Assembly: GCA_934085825.1 (NCBI GenBank)
Contig: CAKOHR010000005.1
Span: forward strand, 3,194-67,193
DNA: 64,000 bases
Direction: 5' to 3'
Origin: an uncultured Bacilli bacterium
GTDB lineage: Bacteria; Bacillota_I; Bacilli_A; RF39; UBA660
A model generated the notes under the pieces. That model saw only the letters and a list, made by a program, of their open reading frames with translations. It made no database searches and was not told where the DNA came from. Below are positions 3,352 to 15,366 of the stretch, in pieces; within the stretch, counting starts at the first letter, position 1, and each line of letters begins with the position of its first letter. The position numbers and the translations under genes are program-made.

Positions 3352-3416
3352 AACAAAATATTAATTAGTAACATTATATGATATAATATTTGTAAATTTC
3401 AGGGTGGTGAAGTATA

Positions 3417-4475
3417 TTGAGAAAAAATACTCCAGAATATAGAATTTGGAAAAAATATCATGATGAAAAGAATTTAAAAAAGAGAACTGCTAGAAAAAAG
3501 TCTAATAAAAGAAAGGTTACAAAAAAAGCTGGTAATAGTAAAAAAAGACAACCTGATAAAGTCTTTGTTGTTCCTGAAATCTTTAGTATAGTTAGTAATC
3601 CTGATACAACTATAAGTTTTTTAAATAAAGTAATAAGGTCGGTAGAAGGTGTAAGAAATCTTCAAAAACAGCATAGAAATAATTATATAAGAACATTTTT
3701 AATTGATATGTGTGACACTAAATATATAAGTAGCGATGCATTGATGTATTTATTAACAATAATTCAAAATACAAGAGGACAAAAAATATTGCCTATAGAC
3801 TGGATTGGAAATTTTCCTAAGGAAACTAATGTAAGAGAATTTTTGAAACGTTCTGGATATTTAAACTATATGAAAACATCTGCAGAAAATATAGTTCAAG
3901 TTGATGATAATATTCAAATAAAATCTGGAATAGGATATAATTATATTGAAAATAATCAAAATAAGGATATTAGGCAAGAAATAATTGATTTTAGTTGTCA
4001 GAAACTTAATAAAGATAAAAGGAATATTAATTATTTGATGACTATGCTTACAGAAATGATTACTAATATAATTGATCATGCATATCAAAAGCAAGGACTT
4101 TTTAAACATCAATGGTACATTTTTGTTGATAATAATATAGATAAGATAACATATACATTTATGGACAATGGGTTGGGAATACCAACAACCATACGAAAAA
4201 GCATAGTTGAAAAAATAATTGAAACAATTAATGCTGAAACTGAATATAAATATATTGAGACCGCCTTATCTGGTGTACACAAAAGAAGCGAAACCGGAAA
4301 GAGAGAAAGAGGAAATGGTTTGCCTTCTATATATGAACAATATTTAAACAAAAAAATTAAAAATTTTGTTATAATATCAAACAAGGCATATTATTCTGAA
4401 AATAAAAAGTATGATTTGCCAGAAGGCTTAAATGGAACAGTGTTCTATTGGGAAATAAAAAAGGAGGAAAAATGA
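3417..4475 (+). CDS. GHKL/HATPase_c (SpoIIAB-like kinase/ATPase) protein with a basic N-tail and a STAS-like middle region
   Basis: TTG start 6 nt after GGTGGTGA. ATPase motifs EMITNIIDHAY (N box), FMDNGLGIP (G1-like) and RGNGLPSIY (G2-like). The middle region FLIDMCDTKYISSDALMYLL...EFLKRSGYLNYM resembles a STAS fold. Confidence 0.6.
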   Translation: MRKNTPEYRIWKKYHDEKNLKKRTARKKSNKRKVTKKAGNSKKRQPDKVFVVPEIFSIVSNPDTTISFLNKVIRSVEGVRNLQKQHRNNYIRTFLIDMCDTKYISSDALMYLLTIIQNTRGQKILPIDWIGNFPKETNVREFLKRSGYLNYMKTSAENIVQVDDNIQIKSGIGYNYIENNQNKDIRQEIIDFSCQKLNKDKRNINYLMTMLTEMITNIIDHAYQKQGLFKHQWYIFVDNNIDKITYTFMDNGLGIPTTIRKSIVEKIIETINAETEYKYIETALSGVHKRSETGKRERGNGLPSIYEQYLNKKIKNFVIISNKAYYSENKKYDLPEGLNGTVFYWEIKKEEK

Positions 4476-4476
4476 T

Positions 4477-4830
4477 ATGGTTATGATTAATGTAGCAAAA
4501 GAATTCACTGAGACGCCTGGCGCTAGATATAAGACACAAGGAGCCTTTTCAGGCGAAGAATTTAGGGATGATATTTTATATCCTAAATTTATAGAATCAA
4601 TTAGTAATAATGAAAAGCTTGTGGTGAATTTAGATGGTGGATATGGATATGGTTCTTCATTTTTAGAAGAAGCATTTGGTGGATTAGTTAGAAAATTAAA
4701 AGAAGAAAAAAATATTCATTATAAGGATGTAAAAGAAATCGAGATTATTTCTGATGATAATATTGTATGGATAGATAAGATTAAAACATATATTGATGAT
4801 GAAATAAAAGCAGTAAAGGGAGGTAAATAA
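4477..4830 (+). CDS. STAS-like small protein (DUF4325-like, from memory)
   Basis: Starts 1 nt after the upstream stop, with GGAGG upstream. FTETPGARY...LVVNLDGGYGYGSSFLEEAFGGLVR resembles the DUF4325/STAS-like family that commonly pairs with a GHKL ATPase. Confidence 0.5.
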   Translation: MVMINVAKEFTETPGARYKTQGAFSGEEFRDDILYPKFIESISNNEKLVVNLDGGYGYGSSFLEEAFGGLVRKLKEEKNIHYKDVKEIEIISDDNIVWIDKIKTYIDDEIKAVKGGK

Positions 4831-4831
4831 T

Positions 4832-5377
4832 ATGAATAGTAAAAAAAGTTATATAATTACTTTTATAATTATTTTACTTATCTCTGGTTTTCTAATATGG
4901 CTTGGCTGTAAAAATAGTGATAAAACATTATTTCAATATAATTTAATTGAAATTTTGACTTGTGGTGTTGTCACTTATGGAATTTTCTATTTTACAATTG
5001 CAAATGAAAAAAAGAATAATCAAAATACAAGAATAGAAAACATAATTGAATTAATAGATAAAAAGCTACGAGTTGTATTTGAACCAAATATAGATGTTAC
5101 AAAACAGGATGAATACTTGCATTCTTTTAGATATTTAGATAATAAAATCTTAATTTTAGAGAAAATGACTAAAGGTCTTGGCTGTGATAAAGAAATAGCT
5201 GATATAAAAAATGAAAAAGATAAATTAGATGTGTATATAAATGAAAATTTAAATGAGGGTAATTCATACTTTGCTGATAAAAGTAGAAGCGAAAAAATAC
5301 CAAATATTATTGAGAACATTGAAACGAGACTTGATAGCATTCTTTTAAAAATATATGGATTTGAAAAAGATAAATAA
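4832..5377 (+). CDS. Membrane protein with two N-terminal TM helices and a helical cytoplasmic domain; third gene of the cassette
   Basis: GGAGGT RBS. Starts 1 nt after the upstream stop. Hydrophobic segments YIITFIIILLISGFLIWLG and LTCGVVTYGIFYFTI. Confidence 0.6.
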   Translation: MNSKKSYIITFIIILLISGFLIWLGCKNSDKTLFQYNLIEILTCGVVTYGIFYFTIANEKKNNQNTRIENIIELIDKKLRVVFEPNIDVTKQDEYLHSFRYLDNKILILEKMTKGLGCDKEIADIKNEKDKLDVYINENLNEGNSYFADKSRSEKIPNIIENIETRLDSILLKIYGFEKDK

Positions 5378-5383
5378 AAAAGC

Positions 5384-6130
5384 TTAGTCGTCTTCTAAGC
5401 TATCTATAACAGAAACAACAGAGTCGAGGGCAGTACTAAACATATGTGAATATGTATTTAGTGTTTCCTCGATTTTTATATGTCCTAAATATTTGGCCAC
5501 TAATGTAACATTAGCACCATTGTTAATAAGTAATGATGCACATGAATGCCTAAAATCATGGATCCTAATAACTTTTAAAGCAGCAAGATTTGCTAGTTTA
5601 GTTCTTCTAAGATATATATTAGAATCAGCTATAGGTTTAGCATCAGAAACCACAAAGAAATCATCATTAAATCCGTAATAGTCTTTTTTATCCTGCTCAT
5701 AGAGCATTTTAAGGTCATTTAACAAGACTTTAATAAGAGAACTATTCTTCTACTATCTCTTGTTTTAGTATCCGAGAATTCAAACTTTATATGGTTATTT
5801 CTTTGTGTTATTTGTTTATTAACAGATAATACTTTTTTATCAAAATAAATATCTTTCCAAGTAAGACCTTTTAGTTCTCCTTTACGAAGGCCACAATATA
5901 TAATATTTCAAATACATATTTCCATCTCAAATCATCTTCATAAGAAATAAATTTTTTAACTTCATCATAAGTATAATAAGATATTTCTTTTCTACGTTCA
6001 TTAGGATCTTAGAACTTTGTCATTTTATTATATACTGCTTGAAAGTTTAAATTATGCCATTTAACACCAAAGTTTAATATAGATTTAAGAAATTTATAAA
6101 TGTCATTTTTATATCATAAGAGATATATTA
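5384..6130 (-). pseudogene. Tyrosine recombinase/integrase, decayed
   Basis: The C-terminal 113-aa ORF has HDFRHSCASLLINNGANVTLVAKYLGH...TYSHM (catalytic R, H, Y region). The upstream minus-strand sequence still reads ...CGLRKGELKGLTWKDIYFDKK... but is broken by stops and frameshifts. Confidence 0.7.
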
Positions 6131-6189
6131 AGTTTATTTATTTCTCGTTTCCATTGCTCAAACTGCATGATATTAAAACAGTTATAGAT

Positions 6190-6369
6190 AAGAAAAAAAG
6201 CGAATGGATTAATAATCCTAAAATGAAACCATATCTTACACCTGAAACATTATTTGGCCCTAAATTTGAAAGATACTTACATCAACAAGCAAAAGCTAAA
6301 ACTATTCAAGATATATCTTTAGAAGATATTAGAAGAGCTAAAGAAATGAGAGATAAACAGAATGGATAA
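6190..6369 (+). pseudogene. Phage replication protein C-terminal fragment (conserved phage C-terminus type)
   Basis: SEWINNPKMKPYLTPETLFGPKFERYL matches the conserved phage replication C-terminus pattern (..RPeTLFg.KFe.Y). The N-terminal part of track ORF 6100..6369 overlaps the integrase remnant and looks non-coding. Confidence 0.45.
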
Positions 6370-6758
6370 GTTGGATTTTGTAGAAGGAATTAAAATATTA
6401 CCATTTTGTTATCAAAAAGTAATTAGTAATGATGATATTTCAATATGGTATGAAATGTTACAAGATATAGAGCCAGAAGTGTTTAAAAAAGCAATTATAG
6501 AACTATGTAAAGAAAGAGCTTATATGCCAACTATTACATGATATCTTAGATAAAACTAAAACAGTTAAGAATAATTATTATTTATCCATTTTAGAACAAA
6601 TGAAAAAAGATGGATACTTCAAATTAGGAATAGTACCATTATCACCAGAACAAAAGGATAGAAACTATGGTAAATCCATTAGATGGATAGAAAGAGGAAT
6701 CATACCGGGATTTTTATTAGAAGATATGCAAAAGTATATTAATCGTGGTAAAAACTAA
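6363..6758 (+). pseudogene. Phage G39P-like helicase loader/inhibitor gene, frameshifted
   Basis: MDKLDFVEGIKILPFCYQKVISNDDISIWYEMLQDIEPEVFKKAIIELCKERAYMPTIT* continues in another frame from about 6540 as HDILDKTKTVKNNYY...GIIPGFLLEDMQKYINRGKN*. Confidence 0.45.
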
Positions 6759-6903
6759 ATAGTAAAAACCATTATCAAATAGAACACAATAGGTAGTCCT
6801 CCCCCCTAGGGTATAGGAATAAAAAAATAAAAAATATCACGACCGACAGCCACCTATATTCACACAAATTAAATTTTTCTGTGAGTTTTTAGGAAAACAA
6901 AAA

Positions 6904-6938
6904 GAGTATTAGAACAAAAACTAATACTCAATTTTTTT
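6904..6938. terminator. Bidirectional hairpin terminator
   Basis: GAGTATTAG / CTAATACTC 9-bp stem, 8-nt loop, A-run upstream and T-run downstream. It includes the stop codon of the minus-strand gene. Confidence 0.6.
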
Positions 6939-7247
6939 AAAATCTAATGGATTTTCACTAATAATTTCTAAAGAATACTTCATTCTTAATAGCTTAATTA
7001 CTTCAGCTTTAACCGTATCATAATCTTCGTCATCACTGATATTAAAAGTATCTTTAGCAGAATTATAGTGTTGATAAAATGTTGCTTCCCACATAGCATT
7101 CCTACTAAAAGAACTAGCAATATAAAATGCAATTACTTCAGACATAACATAAGTAATAATATAATCATGATAATTATCATAAAAAGGATTTATCACTTTC
7201 TCTAATTCTTCATCAGAAATATCCTCATCAGTACATTTTCTAATCAT
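6921..7247 (-). CDS. Hypothetical acidic protein
   Basis: ORF with GGAGG 6 nt upstream of the internal ATG (MIRKCTDEDISDEE...). No recognisable motif. Confidence 0.45.
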   Translation of the reverse strand: MIRKCTDEDISDEELEKVINPFYDNYHDYIITYVMSEVIAFYIASSFSRNAMWEATFYQHYNSAKDTFNISDDEDYDTVKAEVIKLLRMKYSLEIISENPLDFKKIEY

Positions 7248-7375
7248 ACAATTCCTCCAATTCTTTATATTAATCACTTAAAAATTGATTTTTTGCAACA
7301 ATTTATGTCAATTTATTTTAAAATTAGACAAATTATGTTATACTTATTATTGTAAGGAAAGTAAGGAGGTATGAT

Positions 7376-7597
7376 ATGAAAGAAAATAATGAATTGTTAT
7401 CTTCGGCAAAGTTAACATCAAAAGGACAAATTACTGTTCCAAAGATTGTTCGAGAAACATTAAATATTGAAGAAGGAGATTCTGTAATCTTTTATTTGGA
7501 TGAAAAAAAGAATATAAAGATTTCAAATAGAAAAGATTGCAAAGTCAGTTCTGATAATGATAAAGAACAAATTGTAGTAAAGAAAGGTAGTAAGTAA
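7376..7597 (+). CDS. AbrB/MazE/SpoVT-family DNA-binding protein
   Basis: LTSKGQITVPKIVRETLNIEEGDSV is the swapped-hairpin SpoVT-AbrB signature. AAGGAGG RBS. The stop overlaps the hsdM start (TAATG). Confidence 0.75.
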   Translation: MKENNELLSSAKLTSKGQITVPKIVRETLNIEEGDSVIFYLDEKKNIKISNRKDCKVSSDNDKEQIVVKKGSK

Positions 7598-9324
7598 TGA
7601 GTAATATAACAAAAATAGTAAGTGAAAAAGCTTCGTTGATATGGAGCATAGCAGATAAATTAGTTGGTGTGTATAAACCCCATGAATATGGAGATGTTAT
7701 TCTTCCTTTGACTGTATTAAAAAGATTTGATTCTGTTTTATCTGATACAAAAGATAAAGTATTAGAAATGGCAAAAAAATATCCTGAAACATTTGCAAAG
7801 AGAGATTTTATTCTCAAAGAAACTGCAGGACAAAAGTTTTATAATACTTCAAAATATGATTTTAAAAAGTTATTAGATGATCCAGATAATATTGAAGAAA
7901 ACTTCTACAATTATATAAATGGATATTCAGATGAAGTAAAAGATATTATTAAAAACTTTGATTTAAATAAGCAAATAGAAAAAATGGCAGGAAATGGAAT
8001 TTTATATCAAGTAATAGATACATTTAATTCAGAAAAAGCAAATTTACATCCAAGTTATGTTTCAAATATTGAAATGGGATATATATTTGAAGAAATAATA
8101 AGAAGATTTAATGAACTTTCAAATGAAGAAGCAGGGCAACACTATACACCAAGGGAAGTTATCGAATTAATGGTTAATTTAATATTTGAAGATGAAGAAG
8201 ATTTAGCAGATTCTTCAAAGATAAAAACAGTATATGATGGAGCATGTGGTACAGGTGGGATGCTTACTGCTGGTATGGAATATGCAAAAAAGCTAAATTC
8301 ATCATCAAGAATGTTATGTTATGGACAAGAGTTAAATGCTCAAACATATGCTATTTGTAAAGCTGATATGTTAATTAAAGGAGAAGATTCCAATAATATA
8401 AGACATGGAAATACCTTATCTGGAGATTTATTTCCAGGTGAAACTTTTGATTATATTATAATGAATCCACCATTTGGAATTGAATGGAAAAATGAAAAAG
8501 CTGCAGTATTAAAAGAAGCAGAAAAGGGTAGTGATGGAAGATTCTCAGCAGGAACACCGGCAATATCCGATAGTCAACTATTGTTTTTACAAAATGCAGT
8601 ATCAAAAATGAAACCAGAAGGTTCTAAAATTGCAATAGTACATAATGGATCAGCATTATTTAAAGGAGATGCGGGATCAGGAGAATCTGAAATAAGAAGA
8701 TATGTTATAGAAAACGATCTATTAGATTGCATTATTCAATTACCTAATGATATGTTTTATAACACAGGAATAGCAACTTATATATGGATCCTATCAAATA
8801 AAAAACCAGGTCATAGAGTTGGCAAAGTACAATTGATAAATGCATCAGATTTTTATAATAAAATGAGAAAGAATTTAGGTAGTAAAAGAAACGAATTGTC
8901 AAAAGAACATATTGATAATATAACTAAAATATATGGTGACTTTGTTGAAAATGAATATTCAAAGATATTTGAAAATGAATATTTTGGATATCGAAAAGTA
9001 ACAGTTTTACAACCAGAACTAAATGACGATGGAACACCAAAGAAAAATAAAAAAGGAGATTATATTCCTAATAAAGAATTAACAGATACTGAAAATATTC
9101 CACTTCAAGAAACAATTGAAGATTATATGAATAGAGAAGTAATTCCATTTGCCAAATATGCTTACATTGATGACTCAAAAACAAAAATAGGATATGAAAT
9201 ATCTTTTACTAAATATTTTTATAAATATCAAGAACCACGTAAAACAGAAGATATAATGAATGAAATTCTTGAACTTGATAGAAAACTTGATGGTGTTTTA
9301 AGGGAGTTACAGAAAAATGAGTAG
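7597..9324 (+). CDS. hsdM: Type I restriction-modification system, N6-adenine DNA methyltransferase subunit
   Basis: N-terminal HsdM_N-like region, SAM motif DGACGTGGML, catalytic motif IIMNPPFG. Followed by S and R genes. Confidence 0.9.
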   Translation: MSNITKIVSEKASLIWSIADKLVGVYKPHEYGDVILPLTVLKRFDSVLSDTKDKVLEMAKKYPETFAKRDFILKETAGQKFYNTSKYDFKKLLDDPDNIEENFYNYINGYSDEVKDIIKNFDLNKQIEKMAGNGILYQVIDTFNSEKANLHPSYVSNIEMGYIFEEIIRRFNELSNEEAGQHYTPREVIELMVNLIFEDEEDLADSSKIKTVYDGACGTGGMLTAGMEYAKKLNSSSRMLCYGQELNAQTYAICKADMLIKGEDSNNIRHGNTLSGDLFPGETFDYIIMNPPFGIEWKNEKAAVLKEAEKGSDGRFSAGTPAISDSQLLFLQNAVSKMKPEGSKIAIVHNGSALFKGDAGSGESEIRRYVIENDLLDCIIQLPNDMFYNTGIATYIWILSNKKPGHRVGKVQLINASDFYNKMRKNLGSKRNELSKEHIDNITKIYGDFVENEYSKIFENEYFGYRKVTVLQPELNDDGTPKKNKKGDYIPNKELTDTENIPLQETIEDYMNREVIPFAKYAYIDDSKTKIGYEISFTKYFYKYQEPRKTEDIMNEILELDRKLDGVLRELQKNE

Positions 9325-10654
9325 AGTTTTAGTTGATAGTGGTATTAAATGGATTGGTTCATTGCCTAATACATGGAGTATTACAACTGTTAATAAAATT
9401 TTTTATCGAAGGAAAGAAGTTAATGATGTAGAAAATCCAACAGTCTTATCATTAGCTAGGGATGGAGTAAAAATAAGAGATATTTCGACTAATGAAGGGC
9501 AATTAGCAGAAAGCTATGATAATTATCACAAAGTGTATAAAGATGATTTGATGATCAATCCAATGGATTTAATAAGTGGGGCTAATTGTAGTTTGTCAGA
9601 AGTAGAGGGAGTAATAAGTCCGGCCTATATTAATTTAGCTAAAAAAGGAAATATATATCCAAAATATTATGATTATTTTTTCAAATATCAGTATTGGATA
9701 AATGCAATGTTTATACATGGAAAGGGAGTATCATTTGACAATAGATGGACATTAAATTGGGAAACAATGTCTAGTTACAAATTACCATTACCTTCATTTG
9801 AAGAACAAAAAAAAATAGCAAATTATCTTGATAAGCAAAGTGCTAAAATAGATGAAATAATTAGAGATAATAACAAAGAAATTGAGCTATTAAATGAATA
9901 TAAATTAAGTGAAATAGAAAAATCAATTTTTAAAGGCCTAAACGAAAACGAACAATATATTGAATGTAGAAAAAAATGGGTTGGAAAAATGAATAGTAAA
10001 TATGAATTAATTCCAATTAAATATTTAAAAAGTAAGAAGAAAAATGCTTTTGTTGATGGACCTTTTGGATCTAATTTAAAATCTGAACATTTTATAGACA
10101 ATGGTGATGTCTATGTTATCGAAAGTGGTTTTATCTCAACTGGAAAGTTTATTTTTAAAGATTTTAAAACAATATCTAATGAACATTTTGAAACTATAAA
10201 AAGAAGTGAATGTAATGAAAAAGATATAATAATTGCAAAAATAGGTGCTAGTTATGGGATGTGTGCAGAGTTGCCATACTTAGATAAAAAATCTGTTGTA
10301 TCGGGGAATTCACTTAAAATAACATTGGATAACAATAAAATATTAAACGAAATTTTTGTAAAGGAAATGCAAATTGCAAAAAATAAAGGTGGTTTTCTTG
10401 AACTTGTAAACGAAACGGCTCAACCAGCGTTGTCTTTAAGCGGATTAAACAATTTTAAGCTTGTAGTTCCTCCGATGGAAGAACAGGTAATAATTGTAAA
10501 AGAAATAAATCGAATTGAAACAAAAATAGATGAAGTTATTAAATACAGAAGAAATATTATTAATAGTTTAGAAGAATATAAAAGATCACTTATTTATGAA
10601 TGTGTGACAGGAAAAAGAGAGGTGCAGTATGGAAACTCAAGAAAAGAATTTTGA
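9317..10654 (+). CDS. hsdS: Type I R-M specificity subunit
   Basis: Two target-recognition halves, each followed by a conserved helical spacer (LPSFEEQKKIANYLDKQSAKIDEII and PPMEEQVIIVKEINRIETKIDEVI). Overlaps hsdM by 8 nt. Confidence 0.9.
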   Translation: MSRVLVDSGIKWIGSLPNTWSITTVNKIFYRRKEVNDVENPTVLSLARDGVKIRDISTNEGQLAESYDNYHKVYKDDLMINPMDLISGANCSLSEVEGVISPAYINLAKKGNIYPKYYDYFFKYQYWINAMFIHGKGVSFDNRWTLNWETMSSYKLPLPSFEEQKKIANYLDKQSAKIDEIIRDNNKEIELLNEYKLSEIEKSIFKGLNENEQYIECRKKWVGKMNSKYELIPIKYLKSKKKNAFVDGPFGSNLKSEHFIDNGDVYVIESGFISTGKFIFKDFKTISNEHFETIKRSECNEKDIIIAKIGASYGMCAELPYLDKKSVVSGNSLKITLDNNKILNEIFVKEMQIAKNKGGFLELVNETAQPALSLSGLNNFKLVVPPMEEQVIIVKEINRIETKIDEVIKYRRNIINSLEEYKRSLIYECVTGKREVQYGNSRKEF

Positions 10655-13613
10655 AGAAACCATTGAAAAATATTTAGTTACTAAAGGTGGATATCATATT
10701 AGTGATGGATTAGGGTATGATAGGTTAAAAGGATATAATCCAAAAGTATTAATTGATTTTATTGCATCTACTCAAAATAAAAAATGGATGAAATTAATGT
10801 CTATCCATGGTGAATATACTAAAGATTATTTCTTAAAAAAAGTCGAAGAACAAATAAAAGAACATGGTTTACTTTCTACTTTAAGAGATAAAATTAAACT
10901 TGATGGTATGGAATTTAGATTAGTATTCTTTAAACCAGAAACATCAATGAATCCTGAATTAGAAGAATTATATTCTGGTAATATATTAGAATGTGTAAGA
11001 CAATTACATTATTCTATGGATAATGAAAATAGTGTTGATATAACATTATTTGTTAATGGATTTCCAATTGTAATAATGGAATTAAAAAATCAATATACAG
11101 GACAAGATATAAATAATTCAATTCATCAATTTAAATTTGATAGAGATCCAGAAGATCCAATATTTAGATTTAATGAGAGAAGCTTAGTATATTTTGGCGT
11201 TGATTTGTTTGAATGTGTAATGACTACTAAACTTGCTAAAGGTGGTACATATTTCTTACCCTTTAATCAAGGATCTAATGGTGCTGGAAATGTTGGTGGC
11301 GCAGGTAATCCAAATAATCAAGACGGATTTGGAACAGCATATTTATGGGAAAAAGTTTTATGTAAAGATTCTTTATTAGAAATATTACAAAAATATATGC
11401 ATTTAGATTATGAGCCAACAAAATCATGGAAAACAGGAAAAATGATATTTCCTAGATATCATCAATTAGATGCTGTAACAAAGCTTGTTGCAGATGCTAA
11501 GGAAAATGGTAGTGGTAAAAATTATTTAATCCAGCATAGTGCAGGATCAGGAAAATCAAATTCAATAGCATGGCTTGCATATAGACTATCTTCACTACAT
11601 GATGATAATGACAATAAAGTATTTGACTCAGTAATCGTTGTAACAGATAGAAAAGTATTAGATAGCCAATTACAAAATACAATTTATCAGTTTGATCACG
11701 TACCAGGAACGGTAGTTAAAATAGATAAAGGAAAGACTTCAAAAGATTTATTAGAAGCAATTAATGATGGTAAAAAAATAATAATTACTACATTACAAAA
11801 ATTCCCAAGAATATATACAGAAATAAATAGTGTAGATAAGAAATTTGCTGTTATAGTTGATGAAGCACATTCTTCTCAAACTGGAGCAAGCGCTTCCAAA
11901 TTAAAAGAAGGATTAGGAAATATTGAAGAAGTATTAGAAGAATATGCTCGAAGTGAATTGTCAGAAGAAAACAATAGAGTAGAAGATGATGACCTTTTAA
12001 TGAATGAGTTGGCTTCTCATGGAGATCATTCTAATATGTCATTCTTTGCTTTTACTGCAACACCAAAAGATAAGACATTACAAATATTTGGAACTAAATA
12101 TCCGGATGGTAGTTATAGACCATATCATGTATATTCAATGCAACAAGCAATTGAAGAAGGATTTATTCTTGACGTACTTAAAAATTATATGACATATGAT
12201 ATGTATTATAAAATTGTTAAAAGTGCGGCAGAAGATCCAGAAGTTAAAACTTCAAAGGGTATGAAAGCAATAGCAAGATATGAATCATTACATCCACATA
12301 ATTTAAGCCAAAAAGCTGCAATAATGATAGAACATTTCTTGAATACAACAAGATATAAAATTGGTGGAAAAGCTAAAGCAATGGTGGTTACATCATCTAG
12401 ATTGCATGCAGTAAGATATTTAAAAGAATTTAGAAAATATATTAAAGATCATAAAATAACAGATGTTGATGTTTTAGTAGCTTTCTCAGGTGATTTAAAT
12501 GATGACGGAGAAATAGTAAGTGAAGAAAAATTAAATATTGATTATAAAGGAAATAATGAACATATTAAAGAAAATCAATTACCAAAGAGATTTAATGAAT
12601 CATATAATGTATTAATTGTTGCAGAAAAATATCAAACAGGTTTTGATGAACCTTTATTACATACAATGTTTGTTGATAAGCCTTTATATGGTGTAAAAGC
12701 AGTTCAAACTCTTTCGAGATTAAATAGAACATGTCCAGGTAAGACAGATACATTTGTACTTGATTTCGTTAATACTGCTGATGAGATTAGAGATTCATTC
12801 CAACCATATTATCAAGCTACTAATTTAACAGAAGGTGTGGATCCAAATAATGTTTATGCAATCTATAAAAGAGTAGAAGCATATAGATTGTTTTCTGAGG
12901 ACGAAGCTCTTGAGTTTGCAAAAGTATATTATAGTGGTAAGGAAGATATGTCTAAATTAAATTTCTATTTATATCCTGCTAGAAAAAAATATATGGATAT
13001 GAAGAAAGAGGATCAAAGAGAATTTAAGTCTATTCTTCAAGCATTTATTAGAAGCTATGGCTTTGTAGTTCAAGTGGCCAGAATGATGGATAAAGATATT
13101 CAAAGTAAATATATTTTCTGTAAATATCTTAATAAAACATTACCTAAAGAACATGAAACAGTAATTGATTTAGATGATAAAATTGAACTTGAATATTACA
13201 GATTAGAAAAGAAATTTGAAGGATCTATTGAATTAACTTCTGAAGAAGGAGAACTTAATCCTCCAAAGGGTATGATAGGTAAGAAGGAAGAAGAAAAAGA
13301 ACCATTAAGTGTACTTGTTGAAAAAATAAATCAAAGATACAAAACTAATTTTACAAATATGGATAAAGTAATGGAACAAATTACACAAGATTTCTTAGAT
13401 GATGAAGAAATGGTAAATCTTGCTAAGCATAACGATCCTGAGTCATTTAGAAAAGTATATAATGATGAATTTCAAAGAAAAGCATTTAAGAGATATCAAC
13501 AAAATACTGATATGTTTGAAAAGATGATGTCAGAACCAGGGTATATGGAAGACTTTATGACAAGTATGTTCAAGTTTATTTATGATAAATTAAAGAATAA
13601 AGAAGAGAAATAA
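10629..13613 (+). CDS. hsdR: Type I R-M restriction endonuclease/helicase subunit
   Basis: N-terminal PD-(D/E)xK region (DITLFVNGFPIVIMELKN), helicase Walker A SAGSGKSNS, DEAH box VIVDEAHSSQ, motif VAEKYQTGFDEP. Overlaps hsdS by 26 nt. Confidence 0.9.
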   Translation: METQEKNFEETIEKYLVTKGGYHISDGLGYDRLKGYNPKVLIDFIASTQNKKWMKLMSIHGEYTKDYFLKKVEEQIKEHGLLSTLRDKIKLDGMEFRLVFFKPETSMNPELEELYSGNILECVRQLHYSMDNENSVDITLFVNGFPIVIMELKNQYTGQDINNSIHQFKFDRDPEDPIFRFNERSLVYFGVDLFECVMTTKLAKGGTYFLPFNQGSNGAGNVGGAGNPNNQDGFGTAYLWEKVLCKDSLLEILQKYMHLDYEPTKSWKTGKMIFPRYHQLDAVTKLVADAKENGSGKNYLIQHSAGSGKSNSIAWLAYRLSSLHDDNDNKVFDSVIVVTDRKVLDSQLQNTIYQFDHVPGTVVKIDKGKTSKDLLEAINDGKKIIITTLQKFPRIYTEINSVDKKFAVIVDEAHSSQTGASASKLKEGLGNIEEVLEEYARSELSEENNRVEDDDLLMNELASHGDHSNMSFFAFTATPKDKTLQIFGTKYPDGSYRPYHVYSMQQAIEEGFILDVLKNYMTYDMYYKIVKSAAEDPEVKTSKGMKAIARYESLHPHNLSQKAAIMIEHFLNTTRYKIGGKAKAMVVTSSRLHAVRYLKEFRKYIKDHKITDVDVLVAFSGDLNDDGEIVSEEKLNIDYKGNNEHIKENQLPKRFNESYNVLIVAEKYQTGFDEPLLHTMFVDKPLYGVKAVQTLSRLNRTCPGKTDTFVLDFVNTADEIRDSFQPYYQATNLTEGVDPNNVYAIYKRVEAYRLFSEDEALEFAKVYYSGKEDMSKLNFYLYPARKKYMDMKKEDQREFKSILQAFIRSYGFVVQVARMMDKDIQSKYIFCKYLNKTLPKEHETVIDLDDKIELEYYRLEKKFEGSIELTSEEGELNPPKGMIGKKEEEKEPLSVLVEKINQRYKTNFTNMDKVMEQITQDFLDDEEMVNLAKHNDPESFRKVYNDEFQRKAFKRYQQNTDMFEKMMSEPGYMEDFMTSMFKFIYDKLKNKEEK

Positions 13614-13696: not shown

Positions 13697-14083
13697 ATGA
13701 TGATTAAAGTAGTAGCATGTTTGATTGAAAAAGATAATAAAGTTTTCATTGCGAAACGTTCAACTGGTGATCCTAATGTTTTGGGTAAATGGGAATTTCC
13801 TGGAGGAAAGGTAGAACCTAATGAAGACGAAAAACATGCAATTGAAAGAGAAATAAAAGAAGAATTTGAATTAGAAATAAAGGCTAATAAATACTTAGTG
13901 AATAATATATGTGAATACCCTAAAAAAACTGTTGATTTGAGATTATACAGTTGTGAATATATTTCTGGTGATTTTAATCTTCATGATCATTCAGAATATA
14001 AATGGGTAGAAAAAGATAATTTATTAAATTATGATTTAGCACCTGCTGATATTCCGCTTGCTAAATATGTTAAGGAGAAATAA
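13697..14083 (+). CDS. NUDIX hydrolase (MutT-like nucleoside triphosphate pyrophosphohydrolase)
   Basis: Nudix box GKWEFPGGKVEPNEDEKHAIEREIKEEFELEI. AGGTGA RBS. Confidence 0.85.
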   Translation: MMIKVVACLIEKDNKVFIAKRSTGDPNVLGKWEFPGGKVEPNEDEKHAIEREIKEEFELEIKANKYLVNNICEYPKKTVDLRLYSCEYISGDFNLHDHSEYKWVEKDNLLNYDLAPADIPLAKYVKEK

Positions 14084-14085
14084 TT

Positions 14086-15366
14086 ATGAGTACTTTAAGA
14101 GAGATTGTTTATAATTCAGTTATTGCTATTCATAGAAGAACTGGAAAAGAGTGGATTCCACTAAAAGAAATCTATGAAGAAGTCGACAAAAATAGAGATG
14201 TAGGTATAAATAATGGTGGTGCTTCAGTAAGAGCAGCATTAGAAACACATAGTGCATTATCAGAAGCATTTTCTGGAACAGAAGAATACATTCTAAAAGA
14301 AAAAGGATCAGGTCTATATAAATCAATATATTATGATCAAATAAAATTTATAAACAATATGAATATTGGTGATGTATTTACACGAGATCAACTTATGGCA
14401 ATTTTTAAAATAAGTGGTCAGTCAGGCATAATGAAAACTAATTCATTAAACTGTTTAGTATTAACAACATCAGAAGAAAATGGTGTATATGGTGATAGTT
14501 TAGTTGAAAACGGTTTTATTACATATACTGGAGAAGGATTAACAGGAGATCAAACTATCACAAAAAACAATAAAACAATTTATGAATCAAACGAAAATGA
14601 TTTACCAATGTATTTATTCTCTAAAGATAATAATAAAAAATATATTTTCGAAGGACAAGTTAAACTATGTGCTGAACCATATCAAGTTGTAGAAAAGGAC
14701 ATAGATGGAAATGATAGACTCGTATGGAAATTTCCTTTATCAATTGTATATCCAAACGATTATAATTTTGAAAAAGATGAAAAATTTAGCGAAATAGTTT
14801 ATGAAATAACTGAAATCGAAAGCAAAGTATATTCTGACATGATTGAGGAACAAAATGATTTGGAATATAGGGAAGGTAAAATAAATATAAGAAAGTATAG
14901 GAAAACAGACAAAAAAATACAAAAAACTAAAAAGCCGGACTATATAGCTGAAGAAATCATAAAAACAAATCAGGGTATTATAAATGAGAAAGTTGTATAT
15001 GAAAATGAAATCAGGCACTTAATGGAAGAAGAAGCTCAAGAACAAGTTAGGAAAATGGAAGAATTTTTTAATAATAAAAAAGAGAATGAAGGATTTGATG
15101 TTTTATCATTTGAATTAAATGAAAATGGTGAATATGTTGAAAAATATATTGAAGTCAAATCAACAAAGGGTAATGAAGGAACACCAATTGATATTACGTC
15201 TGATGAAATAGATTTTGCAAAAAAACATATAGATAATTATTATTTGTATAGGATAATTAATAGTGAAAGTAAAGACCGTTATCTAAAAATAGTAAGAGGT
15301 AAAGATCTATTCAATAATACGGATTATAATTTTGTTCCAACAAGTTATAAAATATATTCAAATTAA
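14086..15366 (+). CDS. Putative modification-dependent (type IV-like) restriction protein: wHTH-like N-terminus, SRA/YDG-like domain, coiled coil, DUF3883-type PD-(D/E)xK nuclease
   Basis: GDVFTRDQL...SGQSGIM...ITYTGEGLTGDQTITKNNKTI fits the SAD/SRA pattern (G.F.R.eL, YTG.G, DQ, N). The C-terminus GFDVLSFE...EKYIEVKSTKG...YYLYRI fits the DUF3883 nuclease pattern. Starts 2 nt after the NUDIX stop, with an AAGGAG RBS. Confidence 0.55.
   Translation: MSTLREIVYNSVIAIHRRTGKEWIPLKEIYEEVDKNRDVGINNGGASVRAALETHSALSEAFSGTEEYILKEKGSGLYKSIYYDQIKFINNMNIGDVFTRDQLMAIFKISGQSGIMKTNSLNCLVLTTSEENGVYGDSLVENGFITYTGEGLTGDQTITKNNKTIYESNENDLPMYLFSKDNNKKYIFEGQVKLCAEPYQVVEKDIDGNDRLVWKFPLSIVYPNDYNFEKDEKFSEIVYEITEIESKVYSDMIEEQNDLEYREGKINIRKYRKTDKKIQKTKKPDYIAEEIIKTNQGIINEKVVYENEIRHLMEEEAQEQVRKMEEFFNNKKENEGFDVLSFELNENGEYVEKYIEVKSTKGNEGTPIDITSDEIDFAKKHIDNYYLYRIINSESKDRYLKIVRGKDLFNNTDYNFVPTSYKIYSN

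Follow-up and report, generated by a model that had tools for sequence, protein, structure and literature searches.

A predicted phospho-switch cassette of a STAS-GHKL kinase, a DUF4325 protein and a membrane protein carried by phages and other mobile elements

The window analysed here, a 64,000-nt stretch of DNA from an uncultured Bacilli bacterium (contig CAKOHR010000005.1) with a G+C content of approximately 26%, includes a cassette of three adjacent genes, called A, B and C below. All positions in the window count from its first letter, and the coordinates are collected in Table 1. To judge from profile alignments, A and B are a member of the class of kinase and STAS protein pairs formed by CapK/VapK and CapS/VapS, because the profile of A matches CapK and VapK and B shares both the protein family and the phospho-Ser position of VapS. 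The third gene encodes a membrane protein. Our preferred interpretation, to which we give an even chance of being correct, is that the cassette is a phospho-switch conflict module of mobile elements that resembles VapKSC, with the membrane protein replacing the PIN toxin.

A scan of genomes, one per species, identified 20 loci, found in Clostridia, Bacilli/'Tenericutes', Oscillospiraceae and one Endomicrobiaceae metagenome-assembled genome (MAG). B and then C were found directly after A at each of the 19 loci that were not cut by the end of a contig, and identity to the window proteins across these loci was 38–99% for A, and the lowest values seen for B and C were 48% and 23%, respectively. 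The nearest public contig came from an uncultured gut 'Tenericutes' MAG (UMGS1658) and carries a cassette that is 99% identical. A broader profile search detected 17 viral contigs in IMG/VR with A at 28–37% identity. Enough downstream DNA was present in 13, and in 12 of these A was followed by a B-like gene (hidden Markov model E values of approximately 1e-30 to 1e-41) and then by an open reading frame (ORF) of 134–202 aa with one or two N-terminal transmembrane (TM) segments. Because the same order recurs in 19 of 19 genome loci and 12 of 13 viral contigs, the three-gene arrangement is not due to chance. In the window the genes are separated by a single nucleotide at both junctions (TGA-t-ATG for A/B and TAA-t-ATG for B/C), as expected from the initial annotation, which described three translationally coupled genes lying 1–2 nt apart. 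The strong Shine-Dalgarno sequences of B and of C (AGGAGG and GGGAGG, respectively) sit within the preceding gene.

The family to which A belongs is large. While 112 homologues were recovered by a homologue search, a library of 1.84 billion cluster representatives (50% identity) contained 3237 matches at E≤1e-3, 1947 at E≤1e-10 and 644 at E≤1e-30, and nearly all of the best 150 matches listed were full-length. A also falls in phrog_3364 (E 5e-33), a family listed as 'unknown function'. A decaying copy of the cassette was seen in one locus (L021, bases 10001–12279), where A is intact, B has been shortened to 59 aa and C has been lost, and the next gene is a Fic gene unrelated to the one in the window. 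The identical A protein is found in a full cassette on five other contigs.

An AlphaFold2 (AF2) model of A, made with 32 homologues, had a predicted local distance difference test score (pLDDT) of 82 and a predicted template modelling score (pTM) of 0.77. When the model was compared with the PDB using Foldseek, the best matches were all SpoIIAB structures (1th8, 1l0o and 1til; probability 1.00, TM-score on target 0.66–0.70). In the Pfam and NCBIfam searches, the matches of A to HATPase_c (E 2.8e-4, under the gathering score) and SpoIIAB (E 4.4e-4) were sub-threshold. The characteristic GHKL motifs are present, namely the N-box (E213, N217 and H221), the G1 box (D250-x-G252-x-G254) and the G2 box (R298-G-x-G301-L-P). 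Conservation was assessed using a set of 143 diverse relatives that are no more than 50% identical to one another. E213, N217, H221, A222, W233, D250 and G252 were invariant in all 143, and R298 and G301 were nearly invariant. Hence, the SpoIIAB-like GHKL domain recognised in the initial annotation was recovered with its catalytic residues. To judge from this conservation of the N-box and the G boxes, A is under selection as an active ATP-binding enzyme with an intact kinase/ATPase site. Searching the PDB with the sequence of A or B alone returned nothing useful, and the profile searches of the PDB gave only weak histidine-kinase matches and a borderline match to CapS (9Z71).

The region of A preceding the kinase domain had been described as a very basic N-terminal tail followed by a STAS-like middle region. 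The tail, KKRTARKKSNKRKVTKKAGNSKKRQ, corresponds to residues 21–45, and a long Lys/Arg-rich helix is predicted at residues 6–38 in the AF2 model. Across 136 relatives of A, the N-terminal region had a median fraction of Lys plus Arg of 0.35, and Trp11 was kept in 97 of the 143. For the middle region, the support consists of the beta-alpha-beta-alpha secondary structure seen in the AF2 model, weak Foldseek matches to the STAS domains of RsbV and SLC26, and an hhalign alignment that places this region on the STAS part of CapK from helix alpha-2 onward. Position 105, at the start of helix alpha-2 in this domain (residues 104–105 correspond to window bases 3726–3731), is Thr in 95 and Ser in 37 of the 143 relatives and is close to the phosphorylation spot of free STAS proteins. 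We speculate that Thr/Ser105 is an auto-phosphorylation or pseudo-substrate site.

B was correctly described as a 117-aa protein of the DUF4325 type. It matches Pfam DUF4325 (PF14213) with an E value of 2.9e-10 and a score of 40.1 bits, where the gathering cut-off is 23, and includes no DNA-binding or other output domain. B-like sequences share an almost invariant motif, G-Y-x-[S/P/Q]-S-F-L-E-E-x-F-G. The residue predicted to accept the phosphate, where helix alpha-2 has its N-terminus, is part of this motif, and Ser61 was found in 27 of 27 B-like sequences, with Ser at position 60 in 24 of the 27. When the B-family motifs were compared, using B from the window together with those of L037, L038 and L046–L062, a second motif was found near the N-terminus. 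This motif, PGxR(Y/F)...G.SGE.FR (PGxRY...SGEEFR in B), was present in nearly all of the B proteins that precede a TM gene, though two lineages have variants of it, and was absent from VapS, which has a PIN partner, and from the B protein of Streptococcus phages that have no TM gene. This distribution hints, slightly but consistently, that the motif serves the relationship between B and C. B also matches phrog_5816, again listed as 'unknown function', but only at positions 340–439 of its 441 positions. Because B covers just this C-terminal part, it seems that some phages fuse DUF4325 to a larger N-terminal part, and the fusion partner might be a kinase-STAS protein.

The class to which we assign A and B was described recently (Chambers et al., EMBO J 2026, PMC13373217). 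CapK/CapS is a DNA-damage-responsive regulator whose activator is single-stranded DNA (ssDNA). CapK phosphorylates Ser54 of CapS, which consists of a STAS domain and a winged helix, whereupon CapS leaves the DNA and CBASS, Bub and other operons are de-repressed (PMC13373217). The vapKSC system encodes a STAS-GHKL kinase (VapK), a PIN toxin (VapC) and a STAS protein of 116 aa, VapS, which binds to VapC and inhibits it (PMC13373217). The phospho-mimic VapS S48E fails to neutralise VapC, and the approximately 2 log protection that the system provides against phage Bas42 is lost in VapS S48A, VapC D28A and VapK F54A (PMC13373217). That paper makes no mention of transmembrane partners or of DUF4325. 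In an older survey, one VapC group (PIN.4) was found to be transcriptionally coupled to DUF4325 genes.

Using the VapS, VapK and CapK sequences taken from the AlphaFold3 files of PMC13373217, we compared the profile of A built from the 143 sequences with both kinases by hhalign. The match to CapK (95.9%, E 5.7e-9) began at STAS helix alpha-2 and ended at the G2 box, a span of 195 columns, and that to VapK had a probability of 82.9% and an E value of 9.2e-6. A narrower profile of A aligned with VapK over 200 collinear columns that included the STAS part (E 8.8e-4). VapS belongs to DUF4325 (E 2.7e-17), the same Pfam family as B, and its Ser48 aligns with position 60 of B in both hhalign and MAFFT alignments, adjacent to the invariant Ser61. 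In the alignment with CapS (9Z71), S60-S61-F62 of B falls on the SSF motif, and it was only the STAS part of CapS that B matched, weakly (E 1). VapS (PDB 9Z7O) was not retrieved from the PDB, even at E≤10. The initial annotation had stated that no function was known for such a trio. This no longer applies to the kinase and STAS protein, which were described as a module in 2026, and it is only the version with a membrane protein that appears to be undescribed. The conflict or defence role suggested at the same time gains weight from the homology of A and B to CapK/CapS and VapK/VapS, and is still a predicted role.

Hydropathy analysis of C predicted two TM segments, TM1 at residues 8–26 (bases 4853–4909) and TM2 at residues 38–56 (bases 4943–4999). 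In the AF2 model (pLDDT 73, from an alignment of six sequences) the protein is all-helical, and TM2 runs on into a long cytoplasmic helix that is followed by three more helices. These features agree with the earlier description of a 2-TM protein with a helical cytoplasmic domain, and the placement of its Lys residues points to a cytoplasmic location for both ends of C. C did not match a PIN, holin or other family in Pfam, NCBIfam, PADLOC or PHROG. The fold search returned generic helical bundles (alpha-catenin and vinculin; best E 0.029), and these matches were treated as uninformative. When the profile of C was compared by hhalign with the third genes of Marinobacter phage AS1 and a Helicobacter prophage, no homology was detectable. 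Across phyla, the third genes have in common only a small N-terminal TM region and a helical tail. The role of effector that we propose for C is a prediction made largely by analogy with the position of VapC.

The genomic context is the most informative feature of the cassette, which is usually cargo of mobile elements. In four loci (L031–L034) it was found directly after the holin and endolysin genes at the ends of different prophages, and in a fifth (L035) between an endolysin gene and an integrase gene. In some loci it adjoins an integrase gene with Mob_Pre, and in one it is beside an ISL3 transposase gene. It was also found just inside an integrative mobilisable element that carries a relaxase gene, TnpV and a type I restriction-modification (R-M) system, and that is inserted at three different sites. 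The families that recurred among the 139 proteins encoded within 4.5 kb of the cassette in 18 genome loci were recombinases, Mob_Pre and relaxases, endolysin domains, helix-turn-helix (HTH) regulators, YhcG/DUF1016 nucleases and NUDIX proteins. The 'defence island' of the initial annotation was therefore not supported as the general context, as the neighbours are mostly genes of mobile elements, and the Fic and R-M genes seen in the window are specific to the strain rather than conserved partners.

Distant relatives of A followed by a DUF4325 gene were also found in GenBank phages. In Marinobacter phage AS1, the third gene encodes a 159-aa TM protein and the trio is in the operon of a cI-like repressor, opposite cro, while in a Helicobacter prophage the third gene encodes a 134-aa TM protein. 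Francisella phage KIRK has a like arrangement between cI and the integrase gene, with genes for a 293-aa putative counterpart of A, a DUF4325 protein and a TM protein. In the Streptococcus phages Javan132, LYGO9 and phiGBSVK, only A and B are present, past the lysis genes and before paratox. In phiGBSVK-D (L036, bases 3563–5361) these genes encode a 298-aa kinase and a 99-aa DUF4325 protein and are followed by a CsbD-like gene of 66 aa; the gene annotated as 'integrase family protein' after the holin gene in this phage is probably a lysin gene. The position of the cassette in phage genomes varies, as it was found after the lysis genes, before the terminase gene or by cI. In one viral contig (L055, bases 6001–12125), a SIR2-like ORF of 240 aa and an ORF of 1071 aa follow the cassette, possibly as a second pair of defence genes within that accessory region of the phage.

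If the cassette is a phospho-switch of the VapKSC type, it could operate as follows. In the resting lysogen B would act as an antitoxin, holding the cytoplasmic helical domain of C inactive. An incoming phage would produce a cue, by analogy ssDNA or another nucleic acid, that might be read via the Lys/Arg-rich N-terminal helix of A, and a membrane-proximal cue is also conceivable, as the groove is altered and a basic helix has been added. A activated by this cue would phosphorylate B on Ser60/61 and phospho-B would release C. The freed C would then perturb the membrane, causing depolarisation, leakage or premature lysis, and infection would be stopped at the cost of the cell or a superinfecting phage would be excluded (compare lambda RexAB). 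It is possible, though to our minds somewhat doubtful, that this represents a widespread superinfection-exclusion or abortive-infection system of prophages in gut Firmicutes and 'Tenericutes', with diverged forms in Marinobacter, Francisella and Helicobacter phages, in which phosphorylation, rather than proteolysis or a second messenger, would free a new membrane effector. In such a system the signal might be something other than ssDNA, given that A has an additional Lys/Arg-rich helix and different residues at the DNA-contact positions.

Several observations weigh against a VapKSC-like conflict module. Phe54 of VapK, which is proposed to bind ssDNA, aligns with Y103 of A in a column that is variable in the 143 relatives (K, Y, N, S, E and others), and the ssDNA-contact residues K237 and K239 of CapK align with D238 and N240, with position 238 mostly Glu in the A family. 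As these ssDNA-binding residues are not conserved, the activating signal of A may differ from ssDNA. W68 of CapK, which like K237 and K239 lines the ssDNA groove, possibly corresponds to F56 of A (Phe in 107 and Leu in 31 of the 143), in an alignment made by eye. No toxin, pore or holin fold can be recognised in C, and the model of it, with so few sequences behind it, is of moderate confidence. Known defence genes, which the initial annotation had expected to be enriched near such trios, were infrequent, with only YhcG/DUF1016 standing out (4–5 of the 139 neighbouring proteins). In one lineage (L022–L026) the genes around the cassette are of the housekeeping type, and neither mobility nor defence genes occur within 10 kb. 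Finally, the Streptococcus phages have A and B in the absence of a membrane gene.

Because these phages carry A and B alone, the pair appears able to work without C. This is consistent with an alternative in which A and B by themselves make up the complete signalling device. C would then be a co-sensor or an anchor in the membrane, positioning the kinase where phage DNA enters, and phospho-B or free B would act on an unlinked target in the host or the phage. C has no enzymatic or pore-forming signature, acidic membranes and not just nucleic acid could be bound by the basic helix of A, and CapS provides an example of a STAS partner whose output, transcription, is other than toxin release. However, B is a protein of 117 aa with no output domain, C has been retained at nearly every locus over a wide range of divergence, and the only three-gene relative to have been characterised has the toxin gene in third place. 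We regard a device made up of A and B alone as unlikely. The cassette could instead be a regulator of the phage life cycle that senses DNA damage independently of RecA/LexA, with the kinase and STAS protein controlling C as a lysis timer similar to a holin or antiholin, or tuning induction in some other way. The location directly after the holin-endolysin genes in several prophages and by the cI/cro switch in others would fit such a function, as would the response of the relative CapK to DNA damage, the classical induction signal, and the small size of C with, like many holins, one or two TM helices. Yet the prophages concerned have a separate holin (Phage_holin_4_1) and endolysin of their own, C does not match any holin family, and the cassette is also found in relaxase elements that lack lysis genes and beside an insertion sequence, while the decayed element in the window has no lysis module. 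Furthermore, the cassette occupies varying positions in phage genomes, a pattern typical of accessory cargo. Life-cycle regulation is, in our assessment, quite unlikely.

The similarity of the kinase fold to SpoIIAB, and the fact that B is a STAS protein with a phospho-Ser position, would also be expected for classical partner switching of the SpoIIAB/SpoIIAA or RsbW/RsbV type, with a host sigma factor encoded elsewhere. The initial annotation had noted that the kinase and STAS protein look like such a module but that a sigma factor is missing, and neither a sigma factor nor a PP2C phosphatase was found among the scanned neighbours in the window or the neighbours of the relatives. In addition, the cassette is on phages and mobile elements of several phyla, and A has its own STAS domain and is approximately 200 residues longer than the anti-sigma kinases. 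Control of a sigma factor is consequently very improbable, and we retain the VapKSC-like conflict module as the preferred interpretation.

Table 1. Coordinates of the cassette, its predicted domains and signals, and neighbouring features in the window
Feature	Position	Strand	Description	Basis
Possible own promoter of A, extended -10 TGATATAAT	3379–3387	+	Putative site	Read from sequence
Ribosome-binding site of A, GGTGGTGA	3403–3410	+	7 nt 5' of TTG start	
Gene A (K)	3417–4475	+	352 aa, TTG start; STAS-GHKL, Ser/Thr-kinase type, CapK/VapK-like	ORF and homology
A residues 1–46	3417–3554	+	Lys/Arg-rich N-terminal helix with conserved Trp11	AF2, conservation
A residues 47–182	3555–3962	+	STAS-like domain; motifs FS..N, (T/S)xDA(I/L)MY and G-N-x-P	AF2, weak Foldseek matches, CapK alignment
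A residues 183–352	3963–4475	+	SpoIIAB-type GHKL ATP-binding/kinase domain	Foldseek, conservation
Gene B (S)	4477–4830	+	117 aa, DUF4325, STAS-like; predicted phospho-substrate and switch	ORF and Pfam
B Ser60-Ser61 codons	4654–4659	+	Predicted phospho-acceptor at N-terminus of helix alpha-2	Conservation, VapS/CapS alignment
Gene C	4832–5377	+	181 aa, 2-TM membrane protein; predicted effector	ORF and hydropathy
GC-containing hairpin	5381–5401	Site called on -	Probable terminator, 4 nt past stop of C and before convergent integrase fragment	
Integrase C-terminal fragment	5384–5725	-	113 aa	Pfam Phage_integrase, E 1.8e-13
Phage replication initiator and helicase loader fragments	6100–6541	+	ORFs of 89 aa and 59 aa	PHROG matches
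MazE/AbrB-type gene (SpoVT_AbrB)	7376–7597		73 aa; ends exactly at hsdM start (7597)	
hsdM (type I R-M)	7597–9324			
hsdS (type I R-M)	9317–10654			
hsdR (type I R-M)	10629–13613			
NUDIX hydrolase gene	13697–14083		Directly after hsdR	
Gene for 426-aa protein	14086–15366		Weak SAD/SRA match and NOV_C (DUF3883)	Matches PADLOC candidate PDC-S36 and C-terminus of TmtA

Though a candidate promoter for A is listed in Table 1, promoter-like sites were no more frequent in this AT-rich DNA than in shuffled sequence (24 found and 29.9 expected), and a promoter belonging to A is accordingly no more than putative. Most of the genes reported to flank the cassette were confirmed, namely the upstream Fic gene (E 1.7e-22), the integrase remnant and the type I R-M system. 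The exception was the 465-aa ORF at 402–1799 that had been called a HEPN protein. It had no match in Pfam, NCBIfam, PADLOC or PHROG and contains just an R-x4-H motif (R109-NKIT-H114, bases 726–743). In a near-identical strain (L001), the only counterpart upstream is a protein that is 28% identical to it, and because the identity is so low the upstream flank is variable between strains. The Fic gene was also rejected as a conserved partner, as beyond L001 the only Fic found was the unrelated one in L021. A perfect sigma-70 consensus (TTGACA, 17 nt, TATAAT; 12/12) is located at 2389–2417, on the TTG that was listed as the start of the Fic ORF. Because this promoter covers the listed start, the true start of Fic is probably the ATG at 2437 (Met17), and the gene probably has its own strong promoter.

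Directly after the cassette, the region from 5384 to 6541 is, on the evidence of the fragments it contains, a decayed mobile element. Further downstream, the 73-aa gene for an antitoxin-like DNA-binding protein ends where hsdM starts and is thus, by its position, translationally coupled to the operon of the type I R-M system. The 426-aa protein encoded after the NUDIX gene may be a restriction protein that is dependent on modified bases.

Should the proposed function be correct, the CapK/VapK kinase and DUF4325 pair would be a general portable sensor that phages and mobile elements have coupled to various killing devices, namely a repressor, a PIN nuclease or a membrane protein. The cassette would offer a new membrane effector, a testable case of toxin release gated by phosphorylation and perhaps a second signal to which this family of kinases responds. 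For the TM-linked branch of DUF4325, and likewise for phrog_3364 and phrog_5816, it would be the first clue to function. The temperate phages of gut bacteria have accessory regions that include the cassette, and few defence systems have been tested there.

Among known systems, the similarity to the sigma-factor regulators SpoIIAB/SpoIIAA and RsbW/RsbV lies in the GHKL Ser-kinase fold, which was the top structural match, and in a substrate STAS protein that is phosphorylated at the N-terminus of helix alpha-2. They differ in that the cassette lacks a sigma factor and a PP2C phosphatase, its kinase has a fused STAS domain and its genes are mobile. Lambda RexA/RexB is a prophage-encoded system of two genes with no kinase or STAS protein, made up of a cytoplasmic sensor and a small membrane protein. 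The cassette is comparable to it by functional analogy only, as it too is prophage-encoded and in some phages (Marinobacter AS1 and Francisella KIRK) is part of an operon on the repressor side, and no sequence or fold relationship between RexAB and the cassette was found. In PADLOC-DB v2.0.0 (2023), which predates CapKS and VapKSC, neither A nor B had a match and C matched only the TM region of KwaA (E 0.0065), in line with the expectation that the trio was unassigned.

CapK is the best sequence relative of A that we found, and the N-box Asn has nearly the same number in the two proteins (N217 in A and N218 in CapK). As in CapK/CapS, the STAS partner is encoded immediately downstream and has SSF at the phospho-site. 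However, CapK has an N-terminal HTH where A has the basic helix and no HTH according to Pfam, and CapS is a repressor with a winged-helix DNA-binding domain that B does not have. CapKS is also found upstream of CBASS, Bub or Thoeris operons, whereas here the pair is followed by C and then by an integrase fragment on the opposite strand.

The arrangement of VapKSC is similar, with the same gene order of a kinase, a small STAS protein and a third gene. Its kinase likewise combines a STAS domain with a SpoIIAB-type GHKL domain and has no HTH, and VapS (116 aa) and B (117 aa) both belong to DUF4325 and have a conserved Ser at the start of the same helix. The differences are in the third gene, which encodes a 2-TM helical protein rather than a PIN nuclease, in the additional 46-residue Lys/Arg-rich N-terminal helix of A, for which VapK has nothing at that place, and in the N-terminal PGxRY...SGEEFR motif of B, which VapS does not have. 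The carriers of the cassette also differ, as they are prophages and mobile elements of gut Firmicutes and 'Tenericutes'. No account of a membrane-protein version came to light in a literature search that did not extend to supplementary tables in other papers. Hence, while the kinase and STAS pair was already described in 2026, the cassette with a membrane protein is likely a previously undescribed and widespread variant of it that is carried by temperate phages and other mobile elements.

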